A DNA stretch of 31,188 bases, taken from a virus. Taxonomy: Duplodnaviria; Heunggongvirae; Uroviricota; Caudoviricetes. Positions 1-7,591 of the stretch are shown here, piece after piece (positions within the stretch are counted from its first letter, which is position 1; each line of letters begins with the position of its first letter). The notes below the pieces were generated by a model. That model was not told the DNA's origin. It searched no databases and was given only the letters and a program-made list of their open reading frames with translations. The stretch covers positions 1 through 31,188 of IMG/VR virus record IMGVR_UViG_2690316121_000008, one strand, 5' to 3'. Position numbers and translations under genes: made by a program.

Positions 1-1224
1 ATGGCGCTGTCTGATGCGTGGTTGCGTTCAGTCGTTGGAAAGGAACGTGATAAGGTTTTGGTTAAATCCGATCGTGATGGTCTGTCTGTCAGAGTATCAC
101 CGAAAGGTCGCGTAGTGTTCCAATATCGTTATCAATGGGCAGGGAAAGGTGAGCGTCTTGATATCGGAACTTACCCGGCAACTGGATTAAAAGAGGCCAG
201 AGAAGAAGTTATCCGTCTTCGTGGTGAACTCGAGTCAAACCGTAATCCACGATTGGTCAAGCAGGCTGAAAAACGAAAAGCTACTGAAGCCATGACGGTA
301 GAGTCTGTGATCCGTGCTTGGTATGAAGCATATTGTGTAAAAAATAAAAAAGGTTCTGAACAGATACTTCGCTCGTTTGAGCTGCACCTGTTCTCTAAAA
401 TCGGGAATATCCCTCACGATGCAGCTACATTGCATGATTGGTTAGAAGTCCTGGAGCCTCTTAGCACTAAGACTCCAGCAATAGCAGACCGATTGCTAAT
501 TAACGCAAAGCAGGCCCATGTCTGGGCGTATAAGAGAAAGCTCATTGAAACTCGCCCGCTGTCGGATATCACGGGTAAAGATATGGATATCCGTAAAGGT
601 CAGAAGAAACGGTTTCTGACACATGATGAAATTAAAATCCTTTATGCTGCGATCGATGGTTCTCGAATGGTTCCTAAATACCGGGCCTTCATTAAACTAT
701 TGCTGCATTTTGGTTGCCGTAGTTCAGAGCTAATTACCGCCCGGGTGGACGATTTTGATTTCATTAATAAAGTATGGACTGTACCACCAGAACGACATAA
801 GACTGGGGAGATAGCAGGCGAACCGCTAAAGCGGCCCATTATTGAACCGGTTGAAGAGCTTATAAAGTACGCTATTTCTATGAACAATGGTTCCGATATG
901 CTTTTTACTAAGGAAGGAAGCAGGGAACCCGTTGGTCGGACATCATTGCAGTCGCTGCCTTACAATTTAATGCAATACGCATGGCGGCGTTTGGGGTATC
1001 AATTCCCTCATTGGTCTCTTCATGATTTGAGGCGAACAGCACGAACAAACTTTTCTGATCTTACTGCGCCTCATATTGCAGAAATAATGCTGGGTCATAA
1101 ACTGCCAGGGGTATGGCAAGTTTATGACAAGAGCAATTATCTAGAAGAACAGCGTAAAGCCTACCAAGCGTGGTGGGAGAGGGTTGAGGCGATAGTTACT
1201 TGTATTAGCTCATGTTCCCAATGA
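1..1224 (+). CDS. int: Tyrosine recombinase / phage integrase (P4-type, N-terminal arm-binding domain plus C-terminal catalytic domain)
   Basis: 407-aa ORF starting at ATG at base 1; N-terminus resembles the P4-family integrase arm-binding domain; C-terminal region contains HDLRRT and LGH motifs typical of tyrosine recombinases. The attachment site would lie left of the window. Confidence 0.9.
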   Translation: MALSDAWLRSVVGKERDKVLVKSDRDGLSVRVSPKGRVVFQYRYQWAGKGERLDIGTYPATGLKEAREEVIRLRGELESNRNPRLVKQAEKRKATEAMTVESVIRAWYEAYCVKNKKGSEQILRSFELHLFSKIGNIPHDAATLHDWLEVLEPLSTKTPAIADRLLINAKQAHVWAYKRKLIETRPLSDITGKDMDIRKGQKKRFLTHDEIKILYAAIDGSRMVPKYRAFIKLLLHFGCRSSELITARVDDFDFINKVWTVPPERHKTGEIAGEPLKRPIIEPVEELIKYAISMNNGSDMLFTKEGSREPVGRTSLQSLPYNLMQYAWRRLGYQFPHWSLHDLRRTARTNFSDLTAPHIAEIMLGHKLPGVWQVYDKSNYLEEQRKAYQAWWERVEAIVTCISSCSQ

Positions 1225-2844: not shown

Positions 2845-3381
2845 TCATGCGCATGTGTGTAATTCTAATAACTCGTTAAAACGTTCCATAAACATCCCGT
2901 AGGCATGGCCCGGTGCCAGTGGAATCACGTTGAACATCTCTGTTGCCGGGATGCCTTCCAGTACAGGCCAGAAAGAGCCATCATCAAGCCCGAGATCGCG
3001 GCGTTCGGTTGCCAGCATGATGAGATCGGCATATTTCACGGGTGTACTCATAACTGGGGGTAATCCGTATTTCTCACGGATTACGGCGTCTATTTTTTCT
3101 TCCATCCGTTTATAGTCAGGAAGAAGGCGTTTCAGTGGTGCGGGAATGTCCTGACAATACGCTTCTGTTGCATCATGCATTAACGCTTCAAAAGCAAATT
3201 CCTGCGGCACCAGCTGGCTGCAAAGCACCGCATGTTGGGCGACGCTGTAGAAGTGTGAAAGATGACCGGCAAAGCGACAGATATTTGAAAGGGAAACTGC
3301 GATATCGTTAATCACGATATCGTCTTTATTTATCCTGTCATAATAAAAATGCTTCCCGGAAAAAGTTTTAATAAATGACAT
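2845..3381 (-). CDS. HD-domain phosphohydrolase, YfdR/YfbR-like (5'-deoxynucleotidase family)
   Basis: H...HD metal-binding motifs (SVAQHAVL, LMHDATEAY, DIPAPLKR) matching the YfbR/YfdR HD family; start chosen at internal ATG (MSFIKTF...) preceded by GGAGA, giving 178 aa; the ORF track allows 9 further upstream codons (to 3408). Confidence 0.75.
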   Translation of the reverse strand: MSFIKTFSGKHFYYDRINKDDIVINDIAVSLSNICRFAGHLSHFYSVAQHAVLCSQLVPQEFAFEALMHDATEAYCQDIPAPLKRLLPDYKRMEEKIDAVIREKYGLPPVMSTPVKYADLIMLATERRDLGLDDGSFWPVLEGIPATEMFNVIPLAPGHAYGMFMERFNELLELHTCA

Positions 3382-3508
3382 TTTGTTCTCCACGTATATG
3401 TGCTGCACCGCGCTGAATTCTGGTAAAAGGAAGTCCTCGCCATCCGGCGATTATTGAGTCAATTACGTTTCCATAAATGCCCCCACAGGGGCATTTGTAG
3501 TAATGAAA

Positions 3509-4333
3509 TCAGGCGGTGAAAGTACCAATAAAGGTTTCTACTTTGCTGTCTTTGAATTTCTCAACAAGCAGATCACGAAATTCGTTAGCCATATCTTCCT
3601 GCACCGCTTCCAGCTGAATAATGCGCAGAACCAGTACAGGACGATCGCCAGTGATAATGCTGAGGCGTAATTTAAACGGACGTTCTTTCAGGCCTTCAAA
3701 TGGAACGCATTTAAATTCAAATGCCACTGGCATAATGTCTTTGGTCTTCGCTTCGACAGACTCCATCAGGGAGCGTTTGCCGCTGAAGTCATTATCTTCA
3801 AAATCAGCGGTCTGGTTTGCTTCAATCGTGATTTTACGGACAGCCGCAGCCGCTTTTGTTGCCTGAATAGCGTCACCATTAGCATCAAAGCCCACAAGGT
3901 AGTCGGCCCAGTCTTCAATCCATTCTGCCAGTGACTTCTGAGAATTACGCTCGCCATTAACAGACAACAGAGCAGAGAACGGTGCTGTCTTTTTCAGTTT
4001 GAGAGTGGCGGTGTTATCGGCGTGACCTGGTTCATCAATAGTACCCAGGTTAAGAACACTGACGGCACGCATATTATCAGCATCGATAAAGCAGCGGGTG
4101 CCTTCATCTGCAAGATCTTTAGAATAACAGGTAAAGTCATCGATGCTGGCAGTGGAAAGCGCACCACGGAAACGGAAGCGATTTAAATTAAATTTTTCCA
4201 GATCATGAATGCGGAAATTCTCAGGTAATGCCACTGCGTCGGCACCAATCTTACTGATAATTTCATTAACACCCTGAGCAGAAATAAGGGCATGGATTTG
4301 ATTAATTGCGGTTGCGTCTAAGTTCTGAGACAT
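3509..4333 (-). CDS. YfdQ-like protein (DUF2303 family), function unknown
   Basis: 274-aa ORF with AGGA Shine-Dalgarno; length and position (next to YfdR-like and YfdP-like genes) match the yfdP-yfdQ-yfdR arrangement recalled from the E. coli CPS-53/KplE1 prophage; assignment from memory, not searched. Confidence 0.65.
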
Positions 4334-4398
4334 AATAAGTCCTCACTATATAAAGATATTCAGTGATGAGATAAATAATCAGTTAATTAAGAACGATA

Positions 4399-4761
4399 TT
4401 AATGACCTGCTGCGCGGAGTTTTCCGTCAGGTTCACCGGCAAGAGTCAGTAATTGTCCCTGGTCTTCCTGCAGAATAGTCAGACGACCACCGCGATTGAC
4501 ATACATCGGCGTTTCGGTGGTGTCTTCTTCGGAAATTTTCCCGCGGTTAGTCGGGCGAACATATGAGAGTTTGTGTTTGATTTTCACACGGCTCTCATCA
4601 AATGGTTCGATTTCCAGGTTGAGTGAGACCTTACCTTTGGTTTTCGTGTTCATCACACCGGAAGCGACTTCACTGAGAACTGCGCCGATTTTGGTTTCAA
4701 ATACGCCGCCGTCCAGCTCCCCGATAAATGCCTGCACATCAGTACTGCGTTCGCTAGCCAT
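4399..4761 (-). CDS. YfdP-like small protein, function unknown
   Basis: 120 aa from ATG at 4761 (MASERSTDVQ...) preceded by GAGGAG; the annotated ORF continues upstream to 4995 without a stop, but that extension lies in a GC-rich structured leader and is probably not coding. Confidence 0.55.
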   Translation of the reverse strand: MASERSTDVQAFIGELDGGVFETKIGAVLSEVASGVMNTKTKGKVSLNLEIEPFDESRVKIKHKLSYVRPTNRGKISEEDTTETPMYVNRGGRLTILQEDQGQLLTLAGEPDGKLRAAGH

Positions 4762-4810
4762 TTTGCTGCTCCTCATCATATCGACCCTGCAAGGTCGGTT
4801 GGTTTCTCCA

Positions 4811-4897
4811 CAAAACAGAGAAGAACACCTGCGGTGACAGCCGCCCGGATGGATTGGGTTATGAGCCCGTCGTCCGGTGATGATCTTCTCTGTTTTG
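4811..4897 (-). promoter_or_regulatory. 14-bp perfect inverted repeat (CAAAACAGAGAAGA / TCTTCTCTGTTTTG) with 59-nt spacer in the 5' leader of the yfdP-like operon
   Basis: Arms at 4811-4824 and 4884-4897 read directly from the sequence; lies ~50 nt upstream of the yfdP-like start in an unusually GC-rich non-coding stretch. Confidence 0.5.
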
Positions 4898-5625
4898 TAA
4901 AAAGAGCGGTACCAGCCGGAAGCAAGTGTACAAACTGGTACCGCCAAAGCAGTGGCTGTTGTGGTGACCGGTGCTGATCTCCGGCTTGCGGTCATTTCAG
5001 ACTCTCACGGGCGTTTAATTGCCCCGCCGAACAGCTCTTTTCCGCAATAGCTGCAATGTCTTTCGCGCATCAGCCTGCGCATTCACCACAACGCTGAGAG
5101 CACTTAGCCAGTTACGGCACCACACTTTGTCGCGGTTCCATAAATGCCCTCATCGTTGCACCCTGGTCTCTTCCCAGGCGTCAAACCGAATCGCCACGCT
5201 GGTTAGGCGTCTTATCAGCATCCTCATTGACTTGCACATTCCGGCTACCTGGTTTGTTTGCCCGAGCAAGGAGTGGATTGTCCCCTTTAACGTCCCCAGA
5301 CCGCTAACGACGCATGTGCCATACGCCGTGTTACAATAAAATATTCGGTATTAGTTACCAAAGAGACGATTACTCTTATGGTTGAATGTAATACCCCTGT
5401 TGAATATTTTCTTGCGTACTATTTGTTTTTCCTATATAACGAATTGGTTGTTTTATTTACATAATAAGAAGTTTTCTTGAATAAGTTTACATTGTTTTGT
5501 CTTGCTATTTTTCAAAATTCAAGAACAATGAATTGTCGCTATCGGTAATTATTCTTTATGAAATTTTATAAATAACTCCCTGCTTTTGAGTTTTGTACGC
5601 AGTGTTTTTAGTTGTCGAGGACATA

Positions 5626-5835
5626 ATGGATAATCAAAATACTCCTGTTTTTGATGTATGTGGTTGGTACTGTGTGCCAGTTAAAGATCATAATTCAGTT
5701 ATAGTTCAACTGTCCTGCAAACAACCACCATTTGAATCTGATAAAATTATCGAAAGTCCAATATATTCTTTTCCCATAAAAGAAATACCAAATCTCATAA
5801 ATACATTACAAAACATTTATGAAGAAAATAATTGA
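5626..5835 (+). CDS. Small AT-rich hypothetical protein (69 aa, four Cys); stand-alone moron
   Basis: ATG preceded by GAGGA at 5 nt; AT-rich upstream region; intrinsic terminator immediately downstream; opposite orientation to both neighbouring operons. Confidence 0.5.
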   Translation: MDNQNTPVFDVCGWYCVPVKDHNSVIVQLSCKQPPFESDKIIESPIYSFPIKEIPNLINTLQNIYEENN

Positions 5836-5859
5836 TTATAAATCCAGTTCAAAAGTGAA

Positions 5860-5881
5860 GCGTCCATTTGGGCGCTTTTTT
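5860..5881 (+). terminator. Rho-independent terminator downstream of the small moron
   Basis: GCGTCC-ATTT-GGGCGC hairpin (one G-U pair) followed by TTTTTT. Confidence 0.55.
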
Positions 5882-5995
5882 ATTTACGAATCATTCCGGT
5901 CTTCGTATGCCCCGGACGGCTACTTCGTGGGCGTCCTGCCTGTTCGATATCTTATATAGGTACATTATGTATCTCAATGGTACATTGTCAAGTAT

Positions 5996-6017
5996 AAAAA
6001 AACCTGCCGAAGCAGGT
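5996..6017 (-). terminator. Rho-independent terminator downstream of the repressor gene (minus strand)
   Basis: ACCTGC-CGAA-GCAGGT hairpin with a run of 7 A on the plus strand (U-run on the minus-strand transcript), 14 nt past the repressor stop. Confidence 0.55.
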
Positions 6018-6030
6018 TCATAGACATTGA

Positions 6031-6705
6031 TCAGGCTTTAATTTTGTATCTTCTTGGTTTTCCTGAGAAAATAACTGTACCAATGATAGAGCAATTACCG
6101 TTTATCTTAATGTAAGGCTCAGGCCAGTTGGGGTTTAATGCTTTGAGATAACGCTGTGTCCCGTCTTCTATCAACCTTTTGAAGGTGGTTTCACCTGTAT
6201 CGTGCATCAATGCAATAACGTCATCGCCGTGGCAGGCTGGTACTTCTGGATCGACAAAAATCATGTCTCCCGGACGGTACTCATCAATCATTGAATCACC
6301 AATCACCCTCAATATATAAGTCATTTCGCCACAGGGTACAGGGCAGGGATACGTTTCTGTTGTGCTCAAATCAACCTCAGAATAGCCAACTTCTTTCCAT
6401 GCTCCGGCCTGTACCCATGATATGACAGGGACTAACGTTATTTGTTTATTAGTGATTGAAACATCAGGTTTTTTTGTGATGTTCGTTGTCTGGTGTTCTT
6501 GATCAAGCCATCCGACAGGCAGGTCGAAACATTTTTCGATGTGCCGTGCCATGCTGTCACCGATATTTTTAGTAGCGCCATCCCCCATAAACCTGCTGGT
6601 CTGGGTAGGCTCGCGATCAATCATGGTGGCAAAGGATGAATTTCCGCCAACACCATCTCTCAGTTTTCTGGCGTTAGACCGCCGGATGTCATGGATTGTT
6701 TTCAT
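6031..6705 (-). CDS. CI-type prophage repressor with C-terminal S24 (LexA-like) autopeptidase domain
   Basis: 224 aa; C-terminal domain aligns by eye with P22 C2 / lambda CI (ISWVQAGAW, GDSM catalytic Ser region, VDPEV, TFKRL, LNPNWP, INGNC); divergent from a Cro-like gene. Confidence 0.9.
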   Translation of the reverse strand: MKTIHDIRRSNARKLRDGVGGNSSFATMIDREPTQTSRFMGDGATKNIGDSMARHIEKCFDLPVGWLDQEHQTTNITKKPDVSITNKQITLVPVISWVQAGAWKEVGYSEVDLSTTETYPCPVPCGEMTYILRVIGDSMIDEYRPGDMIFVDPEVPACHGDDVIALMHDTGETTFKRLIEDGTQRYLKALNPNWPEPYIKINGNCSIIGTVIFSGKPRRYKIKA

Positions 6706-6721
6706 AACGAAATTAAAACCT

Positions 6722-6740
6722 TTGTACCGATAAGGTACAA
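6722..6740. promoter_or_regulatory. Perfect 19-bp palindrome TTGTACC-GATAA-GGTACAA; putative repressor/Cro operator
   Basis: Located in the 90-bp divergent intergenic region between the repressor and cro-like genes; a possible -35 TTGAAG / -10 TAACAT lies just downstream and further GGTACA half-sites occur at 6784-6789. Confidence 0.55.
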
Positions 6741-6795
6741 GTATCTTGAAGGTTCATCTCGATCATGTAACATGTATACTGGAGGTACATGCTGT

Positions 6796-6996
6796 ATGAA
6801 AGCGTATTGGGACTCTTTAACCAAAGAACAGCAGGGCGAGTTGGCCGGAAAAGTTGGCTCAACACCTGGCTACTTACGGCTGGTTTTCAATGGTTATAAA
6901 AAAGCCAGTTTTGTGCTGGCTAAAAAACTTGAGCAATGCACGTCAGGTGCAATTACGAAATCTGACTTAAGACCGGATATCTATCCGAAAGATTAA
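6796..6996 (+). CDS. Cro-like HTH regulator (YdaS-like)
   Basis: 66 aa from ATG 6796; HTH segment and C-terminal LRPDI motif resemble the Rac prophage YdaS family as recalled; divergent from the repressor across the operator. Confidence 0.65.
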   Translation: MKAYWDSLTKEQQGELAGKVGSTPGYLRLVFNGYKKASFVLAKKLEQCTSGAITKSDLRPDIYPKD

Positions 6997-7027
6997 CAGA
7001 ACACCTTCAATTTTTAACCACAGAACG

Positions 7028-7591
7028 ATGAGGCTAACCGTGGGTAAGCATCACTGGAAAGTAGAAAAACAGCCTGAGTGGTACGTGAAAGCTGTCAGAA
7101 AAACTATCGCGGCGTTGCCGGGGGGTTACGCTGAAGCTGCTGAGTGGCTGGATGTAACAGAGAACGCTTTATTCAACCGCCTTCGTGCAGATGGCGATCA
7201 GATTTTCCCGCTGGGATGGGCAATGATTTTACAGCGCGCGGCTGGCACTCACTACATTGCGGATGCTGTCGCACAGTCTGCTGGTGGGGTGTTTGTATCG
7301 CTTCCTGAAATTGAGGAAGTAGAGAACGCCGATATAAACCAGCGCCTGCTGGAAGTCATCGAACAGATCGGGAGTTACTCAAAGCAGATTCGTTCGGCAA
7401 TCGAAGATGGGGTAGTGGAGCCACACGAGCAGACAGCAATTAATGATGAGTTGTATCTGTCAATTTCGAAGCTCCAGGAGCATGCAGCACTGGTCTACAA
7501 AATCTTTTGCGCTCCAGAAAAGAGTAACGCCCGCGAGTGTGCAGCTCCGGGCGTCGTGGCGTTTTGTGTCTGTGGAGAAACTAACGCATGA
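7028..7591 (+). CDS. Putative CII-like / YdaT-like early regulatory protein
   Basis: 187-aa ORF immediately after cro-like gene; probable HTH near the N-terminus (AEAAEWLDVTENALFNRL); family assignment is a guess from position and HTH; alternative GTG start at 7040. Confidence 0.4.
   Translation: MRLTVGKHHWKVEKQPEWYVKAVRKTIAALPGGYAEAAEWLDVTENALFNRLRADGDQIFPLGWAMILQRAAGTHYIADAVAQSAGGVFVSLPEIEEVENADINQRLLEVIEQIGSYSKQIRSAIEDGVVEPHEQTAINDELYLSISKLQEHAALVYKIFCAPEKSNARECAAPGVVAFCVCGETNA

Follow-up and report, generated by a model that had tools for sequence, protein, structure and literature searches.

How early-left genes are expressed in lambdoid phages that lack an N-type antiterminator is a question for which the literature offers only guesses at put-like RNA (PMC12315714; PMC3851460). 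The question is raised in concrete form by the window analysed here, a stretch of 31,188 nucleotides (IMG/VR record IMGVR_UViG_2690316121_000008) that represents a lambdoid prophage of the SfV / ST64B / mEp460 type. Upstream of its leftward yfdP operon lies a segment (4762-5340) that the initial annotation had described as a G+C-rich, non-coding leader with a 14-bp perfect inverted repeat, and had taken for either a cis-acting RNA element (an attenuator, or a put-like RNA as in HK022) or a compound operator. Our analysis indicates that positions 5344-4762 are probably transcribed leftward as an untranslated 5' portion of the early RNA, and that this portion is a chain of mobile, structured RNA modules, resembling a tRNA array without true tRNAs, for which tRNA-type processing, read-through and similar functions are proposed. 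What had been overlooked is this main content, namely a mosaic of such mobile modules, one of which is a tRNA-like element (TLE).

In the direction of transcription, the modules are a leader domain (L1), a long hairpin (H1), the TLE, an intrinsic terminator, a second long hairpin (H2) and a small hairpin, which is followed by the ribosome binding site of yfdP (see Table 1 for positions). They are separately conserved in very different phages, and the helices of the minus-strand RNA are kept by compensatory changes. The leader works as RNA, on the leftward strand, and its helices are under selection; the stretch is neither coding sequence nor an operator. Hence, the earlier proposal of a cis-acting RNA element stands as far as a highly structured RNA of the leftward strand is concerned; however, the inverted repeat that had been singled out is not the terminator-like element, and a put-like RNA as in HK022 was not supported.

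The leader is a mosaic and is neither an operator nor coding

A sensitive BLAST search against phages split 4762-5340 into three blocks with different phage distributions. The block 4762-4946 was common to SfV and SfIV, and its core (4798-4904) was common to Salmonella ST64B-like phages with ~85% identity. The block 4957-5105 showed a 95% match to the P1-like phage RCS47, and a 40-nt piece of it was ~90% identical in Klebsiella Ackermannviridae, T1-like, Salmonella, Edwardsiella and Cronobacter phages. The block 5086-5336 was common to TL-2011b, O157 typing phage 9 and Tyrion, and its sub-block 5165-5336 was also present in P1, between trnI and ban. In every block match, the shared strand was the leftward-transcribed strand of the window. 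When yfdP and the leader were used together as a 1.26-kb query (4340-5600), 3029 of 5426 complete E. coli genomes were matched, as were 116 phage records including mEp460 (99%) and cdtI, Stx2a, Stx2c and Stx2k phages. In O157 Stx2c and Stx2a lysogens, the region is present with 97-98% identity. Note that E. coli K-12 CPS-53 has only ~20 nt upstream of yfdP in common with the window, so that K-12 data are of no help for the leader. The G+C richness reported earlier was reproduced, as the GC content of the leader was 0.53-0.55 versus 0.29-0.35 in the flanking moron (described below).

The proposal of a compound operator had to be abandoned. The operators of the window are of the TGTACC-N5-GGTACA type, and the region 4340-5336 is 99% identical in mEp460, which has a different repressor and different operators (TTGC..GCAA type). 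Furthermore, the GGTACC/TGTACA words of the leader differ in half-sites and spacing from the oR palindrome TTGTACC-N5-GGTACAA. Because the same sequence is found in a heteroimmune phage, neither the region nor its GGTACC hairpin is an operator, and the oL operator reading was rejected on the grounds that the sequence is not immunity-specific and has no match to the oR operators.

It is in our judgement most improbable that the stretch is translated, be it as the small ORFs annotated in mEp460 (4834-4977 and 5019-5339 on the plus strand; 5082-5005 on the minus strand) or as part of a 198-aa YfdP that is extended N-terminally to an ATG at 4995. There is indeed an open frame in yfdP phase from 4995, and two hypothetical proteins are annotated here in mEp460. 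On the other hand, variable sites were distributed over the three codon phases as 20/26/23 in the leader and as 29/24/66 in yfdP, indicating no three-base periodicity in the leader, which carries no RefSeq CDS and whose overlapping ORFs gave no Pfam match. The homology to SfV stops at 4946, within the putative extension, which also crosses the T-like arm of the TLE, and the 25-aa ORF has its ATG in the invariant D-like arm and then enters a hypervariable insert. Most alignment gaps in the leader are not multiples of three, a weak point in that many of them stem from the 70%-identity L021 alignment, which breaks the yfdP frame too. The coding reading was thus rejected, as homology breaks and hypervariable inserts interrupt every candidate ORF, and the stretch is non-coding as initially annotated.

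A tRNA-like element with covarying stems and a hypervariable insert

The TLE belongs to a large, unannotated family of covarying RNAs with a hypervariable insert. An exact 22-mer from its 5' block, GGTGAATGCGCAGGCTGATGCG, matched at least 120 viral-contig loci, and the 3' block (about GCCGGAGATCAGCACCGGCCACCAC) followed in 111/125 cases after 13-179 nt of unrelated sequence. A second exact-motif scan, seeded on the 3' block, also gave at least 120 viral-contig loci and provided the variation of the 5' block. The structure statistics given below were obtained from 170 distinct copies, so that the family has at least 170 members; in all, its copies number in the hundreds and are spread over various phage types and host classes.

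The acceptor-like, D-like and T-like stems all covary. The three variable pairs of the acceptor-like stem were paired in 93-97% of the copies as compared with 51-72% expected, and pairing comprised exactly 7 bp, with a background level at the next position. Compensatory variants of the D-like stem were GCGU/ACGC, GCGA/UCGC, GCAC/GUGC, GUGC/GCAC, GCUC/GAGC and GAGA/UCUC, and those of the T-like stem, GCCGG/CCGGC, were GCUGG/CCAGC, GUCGG/CCGAC, GCCUG/CAGGC and GCAGG/CCUGC. The ratio of G.U to A.C was 72:28, and this excess points to minus-strand RNA as the conserved form rather than to DNA or the complementary strand. The D loop and the T loop, both invariant, are complementary to each other (GCUGAU/AUCAGC) and may form a kissing contact.

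The predicted geometry is that of a tRNA with other RNA in place of the anticodon arm, as is also the case in tmRNA. The TLE shares with tRNAs and tRNA-like RNAs (phage arrays, the tmRNA domain, YrlA) a 7-bp acceptor, a 4-bp D stem with an 8-nt loop, a 5-bp T stem and a place behind the same leader hairpin that elsewhere holds a real tRNA, initiator tRNA being the closest to it. It differs from them in having no anticodon arm, no conserved CCA or acceptor identity, a T loop of 9 nt with Watson-Crick complementarity to the D loop, and a hypervariable insert, and it is not recognised by ARAGORN or the Rfam tRNA and tmRNA models. The TLE was therefore not accepted as a canonical tRNA: a 79-nt insert stands in place of the anticodon arm, the T loop has 9 nt, NCCA follows the acceptor-like stem in 17/170 copies and it is missed by ARAGORN and the Rfam tRNA model, the stems themselves conforming to those of a tRNA.

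The inserts are extremely variable, as 194 distinct ones, of 13-179 nt, fell into 133 groups without a common 12-mer. The idea that they form a long 'anticodon' stem was dropped, since pairing of their ends was no commoner than in shuffled sequences. As antisense guides, they gave no matches other than further TLE copies in 2.8 Mb of phage and prophage DNA, which is a weak negative because of the small database.

We found no description of the TLE family in Rfam 15 or the searchable literature, although absence there is not proof of novelty. Specifically, Rfam 15 gave no match at E up to 1 within 4000-7200 of the window and nothing over the TLE at 8 other loci, and ARAGORN detected no tRNA or tmRNA in 4762-5340. 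The carriers span unrelated phage types, namely P1, lambdoid, epsilon15-like and Ackermannviridae phages. When one genome per species was scanned with a degenerate motif, ~62 of 120 matches were true copies as judged by D-stem pairing, the rest being chance matches, and the TLE was complete in 36 of the 62. These 36 were mostly from alpha-, beta-, gamma- and deltaproteobacterial genomes; single complete copies in Coriobacteriia and in a Phycisphaerales metagenome-assembled genome are possibly mis-binned.

Several further features were observed around the TLE. A second subtype, GUGGUGAAUGCGGCUCAGCGCAC ... CCGGGAGGCACCCGGCACCACAAC, is present in SfV (L342), ST64B (L340), Eeyore (L341) and P1 (L004, 3592-3614); it has the same acceptor-like stem and different, mutually non-complementary D and T loops, and occupies the same leader position in SfV-type phages. 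Some inserts (L093, L103, L123, L126) and some inserts or hairpin loops (L084, L006, L012, L036) resemble pieces of cellular RNAs, including tRNA D-arm- or T-arm-like pieces, and one insert recalls what we take to be a 16S rRNA segment (...GCUAGAUGGUGAGGUAAUGGCUCACCAUGGCGACGA...). In L006 (Klebsiella phage Magnus), L025, L033, L037, L047, L069, L072 and L074, a tmRNA-like messenger part lies ~100-300 nt 5' of the TLE; it shows a resume-codon context together with tag ORFs (for example, ANDDVVLMAA, ANEEMYLAVA, ANDEQFLAVA and ANDDLMLMAA), each ending at a stop codon. This part gave only weak Rfam matches (tmRNA_permuted / alpha_tmRNA) and none with ARAGORN, and is not found in the window; possibly, it represents a phage gene of the tmRNA type that has escaped recognition and is linked to the TLE.

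The tRNA slot and likeness to initiator tRNA

The 3' strand of H1 runs directly into the acceptor-like stem of the TLE, and an H1-class helix ends at the start of this stem in about half of the TLE copies. The class was counted by duplex energies, which replaced a count of ungapped helices that had underestimated it, and 87 of 163 distinct H1-type 3' strands had a duplex energy of z < -2 against shuffles. Many of these helices have wholly different yet complementary sequences. In O157 typing phage 9, the same L1 and H1 are followed by a genuine tRNA-Arg(UCU), which begins at the identical nucleotide.

The same modules occur in the ban operon of P1 (Pban, dicF-like region, trnA, trnT, tciABC, trnI, ban), where trnT and tciA are separated by a type-A and a type-B TLE, both with a leader hairpin of their own, and L1 is found directly after trnI. 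Like the window, P1 has an early operon under repressor control whose long leader is RNA-rich; the difference is that in P1 true tRNAs and protein genes stand between the modules, which are unannotated there. A real tRNA in the same slot and this interleaving in P1 suggest that the TLE is an interchangeable cassette of the phage tRNA-array architecture, and by analogy it would be matured like a tRNA. The two TLEs of P1 (L004, NC_005856; 3590-3880, minus strand) and three in RCS47 (L005; 1920-2631) are in ban-operon sense and lie under the ORFs upl and plp, which in P1 are on the opposite, plus strand. The upl and plp calls may be artefacts over unannotated RNA genes.

H1 also resembles the rrn processing stems, in which a long hairpin flanks a stable-RNA cargo, and H2 resembles the lambda pL leader (nutL, RNase III hairpin, N) in that a long, near-perfect RNA hairpin precedes the ribosome binding site of the first gene. 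Unlike those systems, the window has no N gene, and the boxA-like words of H1-type strands are engaged in base pairs and give way, in many copies, to unrelated complementary sequences. The word UGCUCUUU in the commonest H1-type 3' strand, presumably identical to the rrn boxA core, was for this reason set aside as a Nus site.

Among tRNAs, the initiator is the one that the leader resembles most. The 3' strands of the T-like and acceptor-like stems match E. coli metY in 11/13 positions, versus at most 8/13 for ten other tRNAs, and the acceptor-stem differences from metY are paired transitions. The tip of H2 (ACGGGCUCAUAACCCAAUCC, 4870-4851) matches metY in 15/20 bases, versus at most 12/20 for 10 other tRNAs, and has 14 contiguous bases (GGG-CUCAUAA-CCC) in common with the initiator anticodon arm, a motif that also appears in H1-type loops of P1 and several contigs. 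A far-reaching and, in our opinion, speculative interpretation is that the TLE is the first of an initiator-tRNA-derived RNA family of Proteobacteria phages including P1, in which the conserved top half of a tRNA is a scaffold for processing and stability that presents a fast-evolving, unstructured insert of 13-180 nt, and which, together with the anticodon-arm-mimic hairpins, would serve as decoys or baits against tRNA-recognising factors or defences and not as leader regulators. The decoyed targets might then be, with equally little assurance, nucleases cutting initiator tRNA, for example.

A putative intrinsic terminator and a long hairpin precede yfdP

The GGTACC/TGTACA palindromes noted initially are present and constitute the two arms of one 13-bp hairpin (4945-4933 / 4917-4905; -21.2 kcal/mol, z = -4.3). 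On sequence criteria, the site looks like an intrinsic terminator, having a stable G+C-rich hairpin and an immediate U-run on the transcribed strand; a simple terminator scan missed it because of its long loop (15-19 nt). The terminator-like part of the leader is therefore this hairpin with its U-run, not the 14-bp repeat. A hairpin followed by U5-6 was found at the same position in 6/8 relatives, three of which have unrelated stems: SfV and L302 carry the same stem as the window, and ST64B, Eeyore and L202 carry unrelated ones of -18 to -24 kcal/mol, again with U5-6 behind the hairpin at this position. That the form is kept without the sequence argues for a real terminator, and with a terminator in the leader, yfdP and the genes further left should need read-through.

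The 14-bp perfect inverted repeat (4811-4824 / 4884-4897) was found as initially described, and is the core of a larger pair of 25-nt arms (4810-4834 / 4874-4898; 84% complementary). By our own arithmetic, ~2e-4 perfect 14-bp repeats within 100 nt are expected per 580 random bases. The minus-strand RNA 4905-4762 folds with -55.8 kcal/mol (z = -4.7), and 0/200 shuffles were as stable. The resulting hairpin, H2, is a helix of the H1 class that sits between the terminator and the yfdP ribosome binding site. In an alignment of the window with SfV, ST64B, Eeyore and five contigs (A5), 92% of the cells were paired and 7 pairs were altered on both sides, the covariation score was reached by 0/500 shuffles, and G.U outnumbered A.C by 32:4. 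Thus, the inverted repeat is conserved across the relatives with compensatory changes. Neither of the two findings that would have refuted the initial proposal, translation or a non-conserved repeat, was therefore obtained. By analogy with the N leader of lambda and its RNase III hairpin, H2 may be a double-stranded element of the 5' untranslated region (UTR). The additional hairpin of the initial annotation was found as well, as a 6-bp stem; it is the same in SfV, and a different hairpin stands at that position in ST64B and Eeyore.

L1, element E and the put question

An additional element, E, lies outside 4762-5340, close to the inferred pL start. E is kept in 45 phage records from at least six host genera and is unannotated everywhere; its carriers include ST64B, SfV, SfII, SfIV, phiNP, mEp237, SEN34, SPN3UB, YeP1-3, AH07 and ZF40, and their hosts are Escherichia, Salmonella, Shigella, Yersinia, Klebsiella, Citrobacter, Pantoea and Pectobacterium. 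It has 40 invariant columns, and all 5 pairs of its hairpin 2 covary. L1 (alias M3, unrelated to the M3 RNA of phi80) was detected in RCS47, O157 typing phage 9, Tyrion and IMG/VR contigs as well as in P1, where trnI immediately precedes it and ban follows; several of its stems are altered on both sides. ST64B, SfV and Eeyore have E without L1, mEp460 has L1 without E, and the window has both. In mEp460, L1 begins roughly 40-70 nt after the inferred pL.

The absence of an N-like gene was borne out, since there is no conserved ORF between pL and yfdP and no leftward ORF with an N-family Pfam match, and at the corresponding site SfV has orf33, which is acidic rather than rich in arginine. N, cII and cIII were reported to be missing from the related phages SfII, SfV and SfIV (PMC3851460), and for the related phage LLS the authors guess at a put-like RNA antiterminator (PMC12315714).

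For comparison with put, covariance models were built from the 5' half of L1 (R1) and from E (R2). R2 scored 91.5 bits on E of the window and detected no second, putR-like copy in the window. Neither model found HK022 putL (~8220-8300 of L219) or putR (~9440-9520) at E up to 10 with filters off. The annotated putL of HK639 was overlapped by R2 at 5.4 bits (E = 4.8, rank 9/14) and not by R1, and BLAST against HK022 and HK639 gave nothing. Note that Rfam contains no put model. Membership in the HK022-type put family, as had been suggested initially for the leader, was therefore rejected, there being no sequence or structure homology by two models and BLAST. There are nevertheless likenesses to HK022 and HK639: these phages are lambdoid, N-less and have terminators in the early-left leader, E is located right downstream of pL like putL, as is L1 in mEp460, and E consists of about 60-75 nt with two stem-loops of near-invariant sequence. 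A few short words are also shared with put (ACGGCG...CAUGCGUCG in L1; CGAAC.GGC ... GGAUGA in E). The differences are the lack of detectable homology and of a second copy, the occurrence of L1 far from promoters, as in P1, and the position of the originally flagged inverted repeat downstream of the terminator, ~1.1 kb from pL. A location just downstream of the promoter applies to E (~10 nt) and to L1 of mEp460; 4762-5340 lies >600 nt from pL in the window. E is a candidate protein-independent antiterminator or leader signal of N-less lambdoid phages, and a put-like mode is possible for E or L1 on positional grounds alone. As a separate observation, HK639 (L344, 37910-37969) has an annotated 'M3-like RNA' (after the phi80 RNase P substrate) following cII, which is unrelated in sequence to the window; small RNase P-processed RNAs are thus known in lambdoid early operons.

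Genomic setting

The features of the window are listed in Table 1. RefSeq has no annotation from yfdP up to a small plus-strand ORF (5627-5835). The candidate pL directly follows the repressor terminator and is overlapped by TGTACC-type operator half-sites resembling those of oR (oR palindrome, TTGTACC-GATAA-GGTACAA; pL region, ATGTACC...GATACAT and ATGTACC). Between pL/E and the conserved leader sits a moron of 620 bp (5345-5960) with low GC (0.29) and the opposite orientation, which contains a plus-strand ORF (5593/5627-5835) without a Pfam match, promoter-like sites of its own and a terminator (5857-5878). The hairpin of this terminator may also impede leftward transcripts. The moron is absent from mEp460, in which pL abuts the leader domain. 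Elsewhere in the window, a plus-strand cluster of four tRNAs (13247-13556; Met-CAU, Arg-UCU, Thr-UGU and Gly-UCC) has its own AT-rich upstream region and does not share the H1-type leader hairpin.

Table 1. Positions of the genes, signals and RNA modules of the window (positions of minus-strand signals and RNA modules are given 5' to 3')
Feature	Position	Strand	Description	Basis
Integrase	1-1224	+		
yfdR	2845-3408		leftward operon	
yfdQ	3509-4333		leftward operon	
yfdP	4399-4761		leftward operon; ATG at 4761; ribosome binding site GAGGAG, 4774-4769	
Small hairpin	4797-4782	-	6 bp; between H2 and the yfdP ribosome binding site	
H2 long hairpin (inverted repeat)	4903-4805	-	~24-bp helix, branched tip	fold energy, covariation
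Intrinsic terminator-like site	4945-4899	-	13-bp G+C-rich hairpin (GGTACC palindromes), then UCUUUUU	
TLE	5090-4960	-		covariation among 170 distinct copies
TLE, acceptor-like stem	5090-5084 / 4966-4960	-	7 bp	
TLE, linker	5083-5081	-	AAU, 3 nt	
TLE, D-like stem	5080-5077 / 5068-5065	-	4 bp; invariant 8-nt loop AGGCUGAU, 5076-5069	
TLE, insert	5064-4986	-	79 nt	
TLE, T-like stem	4985-4981 / 4971-4967	-	5 bp; 9-nt loop AGAUCAGCA, 4980-4972	
H1 long hairpin	5158-5089	-	5' strand CAACGAUGAGGGCAUU, 5158-5143; 3' strand AGUGCUCUCAGCGUUG, 5104-5089	
L1 hairpin	5178-5162	-	CCUGG-GAAGAGA-CCAGG	
Leader domain L1	5344-5162	-	conserved blocks ACGGCGUAUGGCACAUGCGUCG and GGUAGCCGGAAUGUGCAAG	
G+C-rich hairpin ending the plus-strand moron ORF	5857-5878		read on the minus strand, followed by CACUUUUGAA	terminator scan
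Element E	5946-5887	-	60 nt; starts ~10 nt after the inferred pL start	
Candidate pL	5991-5964	-	TTGACA, 16-nt spacer, CATAAT	promoter scan, 11/12
Repressor terminator	6019-6000			terminator scan
S24 repressor	6031-6705	-	Cro-like gene to its right	

Proposed mechanism and alternative explanations

In the reading that we favour, the leader RNA would be made by transcription from pL, and the TLE would be excised from it like a tRNA, with an RNase P cut at the junction of H1 and the acceptor-like stem, RNase III cuts in the long perfect helices H1 and H2, and a 3' end supplied by the terminator. Processing would leave a stable RNA of ~130 nt, shaped like a tRNA and displaying the variable, mostly unstructured insert. 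The terminator would halt unmodified polymerase, so that expression of yfdP, yfdQ, yfdR and the genes further left would need read-through, which in this N-less group is more likely to come from E and/or L1 than from the inverted repeat. H2 would be a double-stranded RNA element of the yfdP 5' UTR, serving as a processing site or a 5' stabiliser, and the TLE and the H2 tip, as diverged pieces of initiator tRNA, may mimic or decoy factors that recognise tRNA-fMet. We infer the maturation of the TLE as a tRNA, the roles of H1 and H2, the source of the read-through and the decoy function from the features described above.

Several observations weigh against this picture. CCA is not conserved after the acceptor-like stem, and tRNA models do not recognise the TLE (Rfam tRNA model, none at E up to 1), so that RNase P processing is an analogy. 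The 3' strand of H1 and the acceptor-like stem compete for ~4 nt, and the kissing pair of the D and T loops comes without covariation because the loops are invariant. The inserts do not exceed shuffles in structure (mean z = -0.85), the pairing frequency of their ends is 0.13 versus 0.14 in shuffles, and they may be just tolerated filler. The slid-partner control for H2, with pairing of 43-51%, favours H2 in that the structure was derived from the window sequence itself. Neither E nor L1 is homologous to put, as judged from the failure of R1 and R2 to find the put sites of HK022 and from the poor R2 score on that of HK639. Finally, transcription from pL across the opposing 620-bp moron is an assumption, and the moron hairpin could halt the leftward RNA.

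As for the alternatives, L1 and/or E could be a protein-independent processive antiterminator of the put kind, whose nascent RNA binds RNA polymerase and carries it past the leader terminators; we regard this as a possibility to be held only tentatively. It would fit an N-less phage group with terminators between pL and yfdP in every relative examined, the promoter-proximal position and near-invariance of E across six host genera, the way in which mEp460 has L1 in place of E and ST64B, SfV and Eeyore have E in place of L1, the short words in common with put, and the suggestion made for phage LLS (PMC12315714). It is countered by the results with the two covariance models and BLAST, by the presence of L1 inside operons and in non-lambdoid phages (P1 trnI-ban, epsilon15-like), and by the distance of L1 from pL (>600 nt) in the window.

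The remaining explanations deny the modules a function as RNA. That they are decaying tRNA-array debris, carried along by recombination and without function beyond spacing pL from yfdP, would be in keeping with a TLE that sits in a tRNA slot, resembles tRNA-fMet, and has neither an anticodon arm nor conserved CCA, and with inserts that look unconstrained. However, invariant D and T loops and compensated stems are found in at least 170 distinct copies, for the most part from alpha- to deltaproteobacterial genomes and from phages of unrelated types, and pseudogenes would not keep exact helix lengths or a bias of G.U over A.C; we therefore consider debris unlikely. Still less credible, and indeed very improbable, is that the repeats act as DNA and constitute either recombination linkers at module borders or a miniature mobile element with inverted repeats (GTTGTGGTGA...TCACCACAAC). 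The TLE is enclosed by a perfect terminal inverted repeat of 10 bp, and this, the conserved flanks with a variable interior and the mosaic distribution of the modules would suit such a reading. However, the outer 'terminal repeat' varies freely as long as it is paired (GAGGGGUG/CACCCCUC, UGUAGGUG/CACCUACA), which is a poor fit to a protein-recognised end; moreover, G.U is more frequent than A.C, the internal D and T stems covary too, and the TLE replaces a tRNA in single-nucleotide register.

Implications for N-less lambdoid phages

The question of how N-less phages express their early-left genes gains concrete pieces from this analysis, namely a terminator conserved in position, and the promoter-proximal elements E and L1, which are not homologues of put. 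If the modules are functional, the annotation would have to be corrected where ORFs now overlie these RNAs, as in mEp460 and, with upl and plp of the opposite strand, in P1. The TLE would then represent a new kind of phage-borne stable RNA, tied to tRNA biology and possibly to counter-defence.

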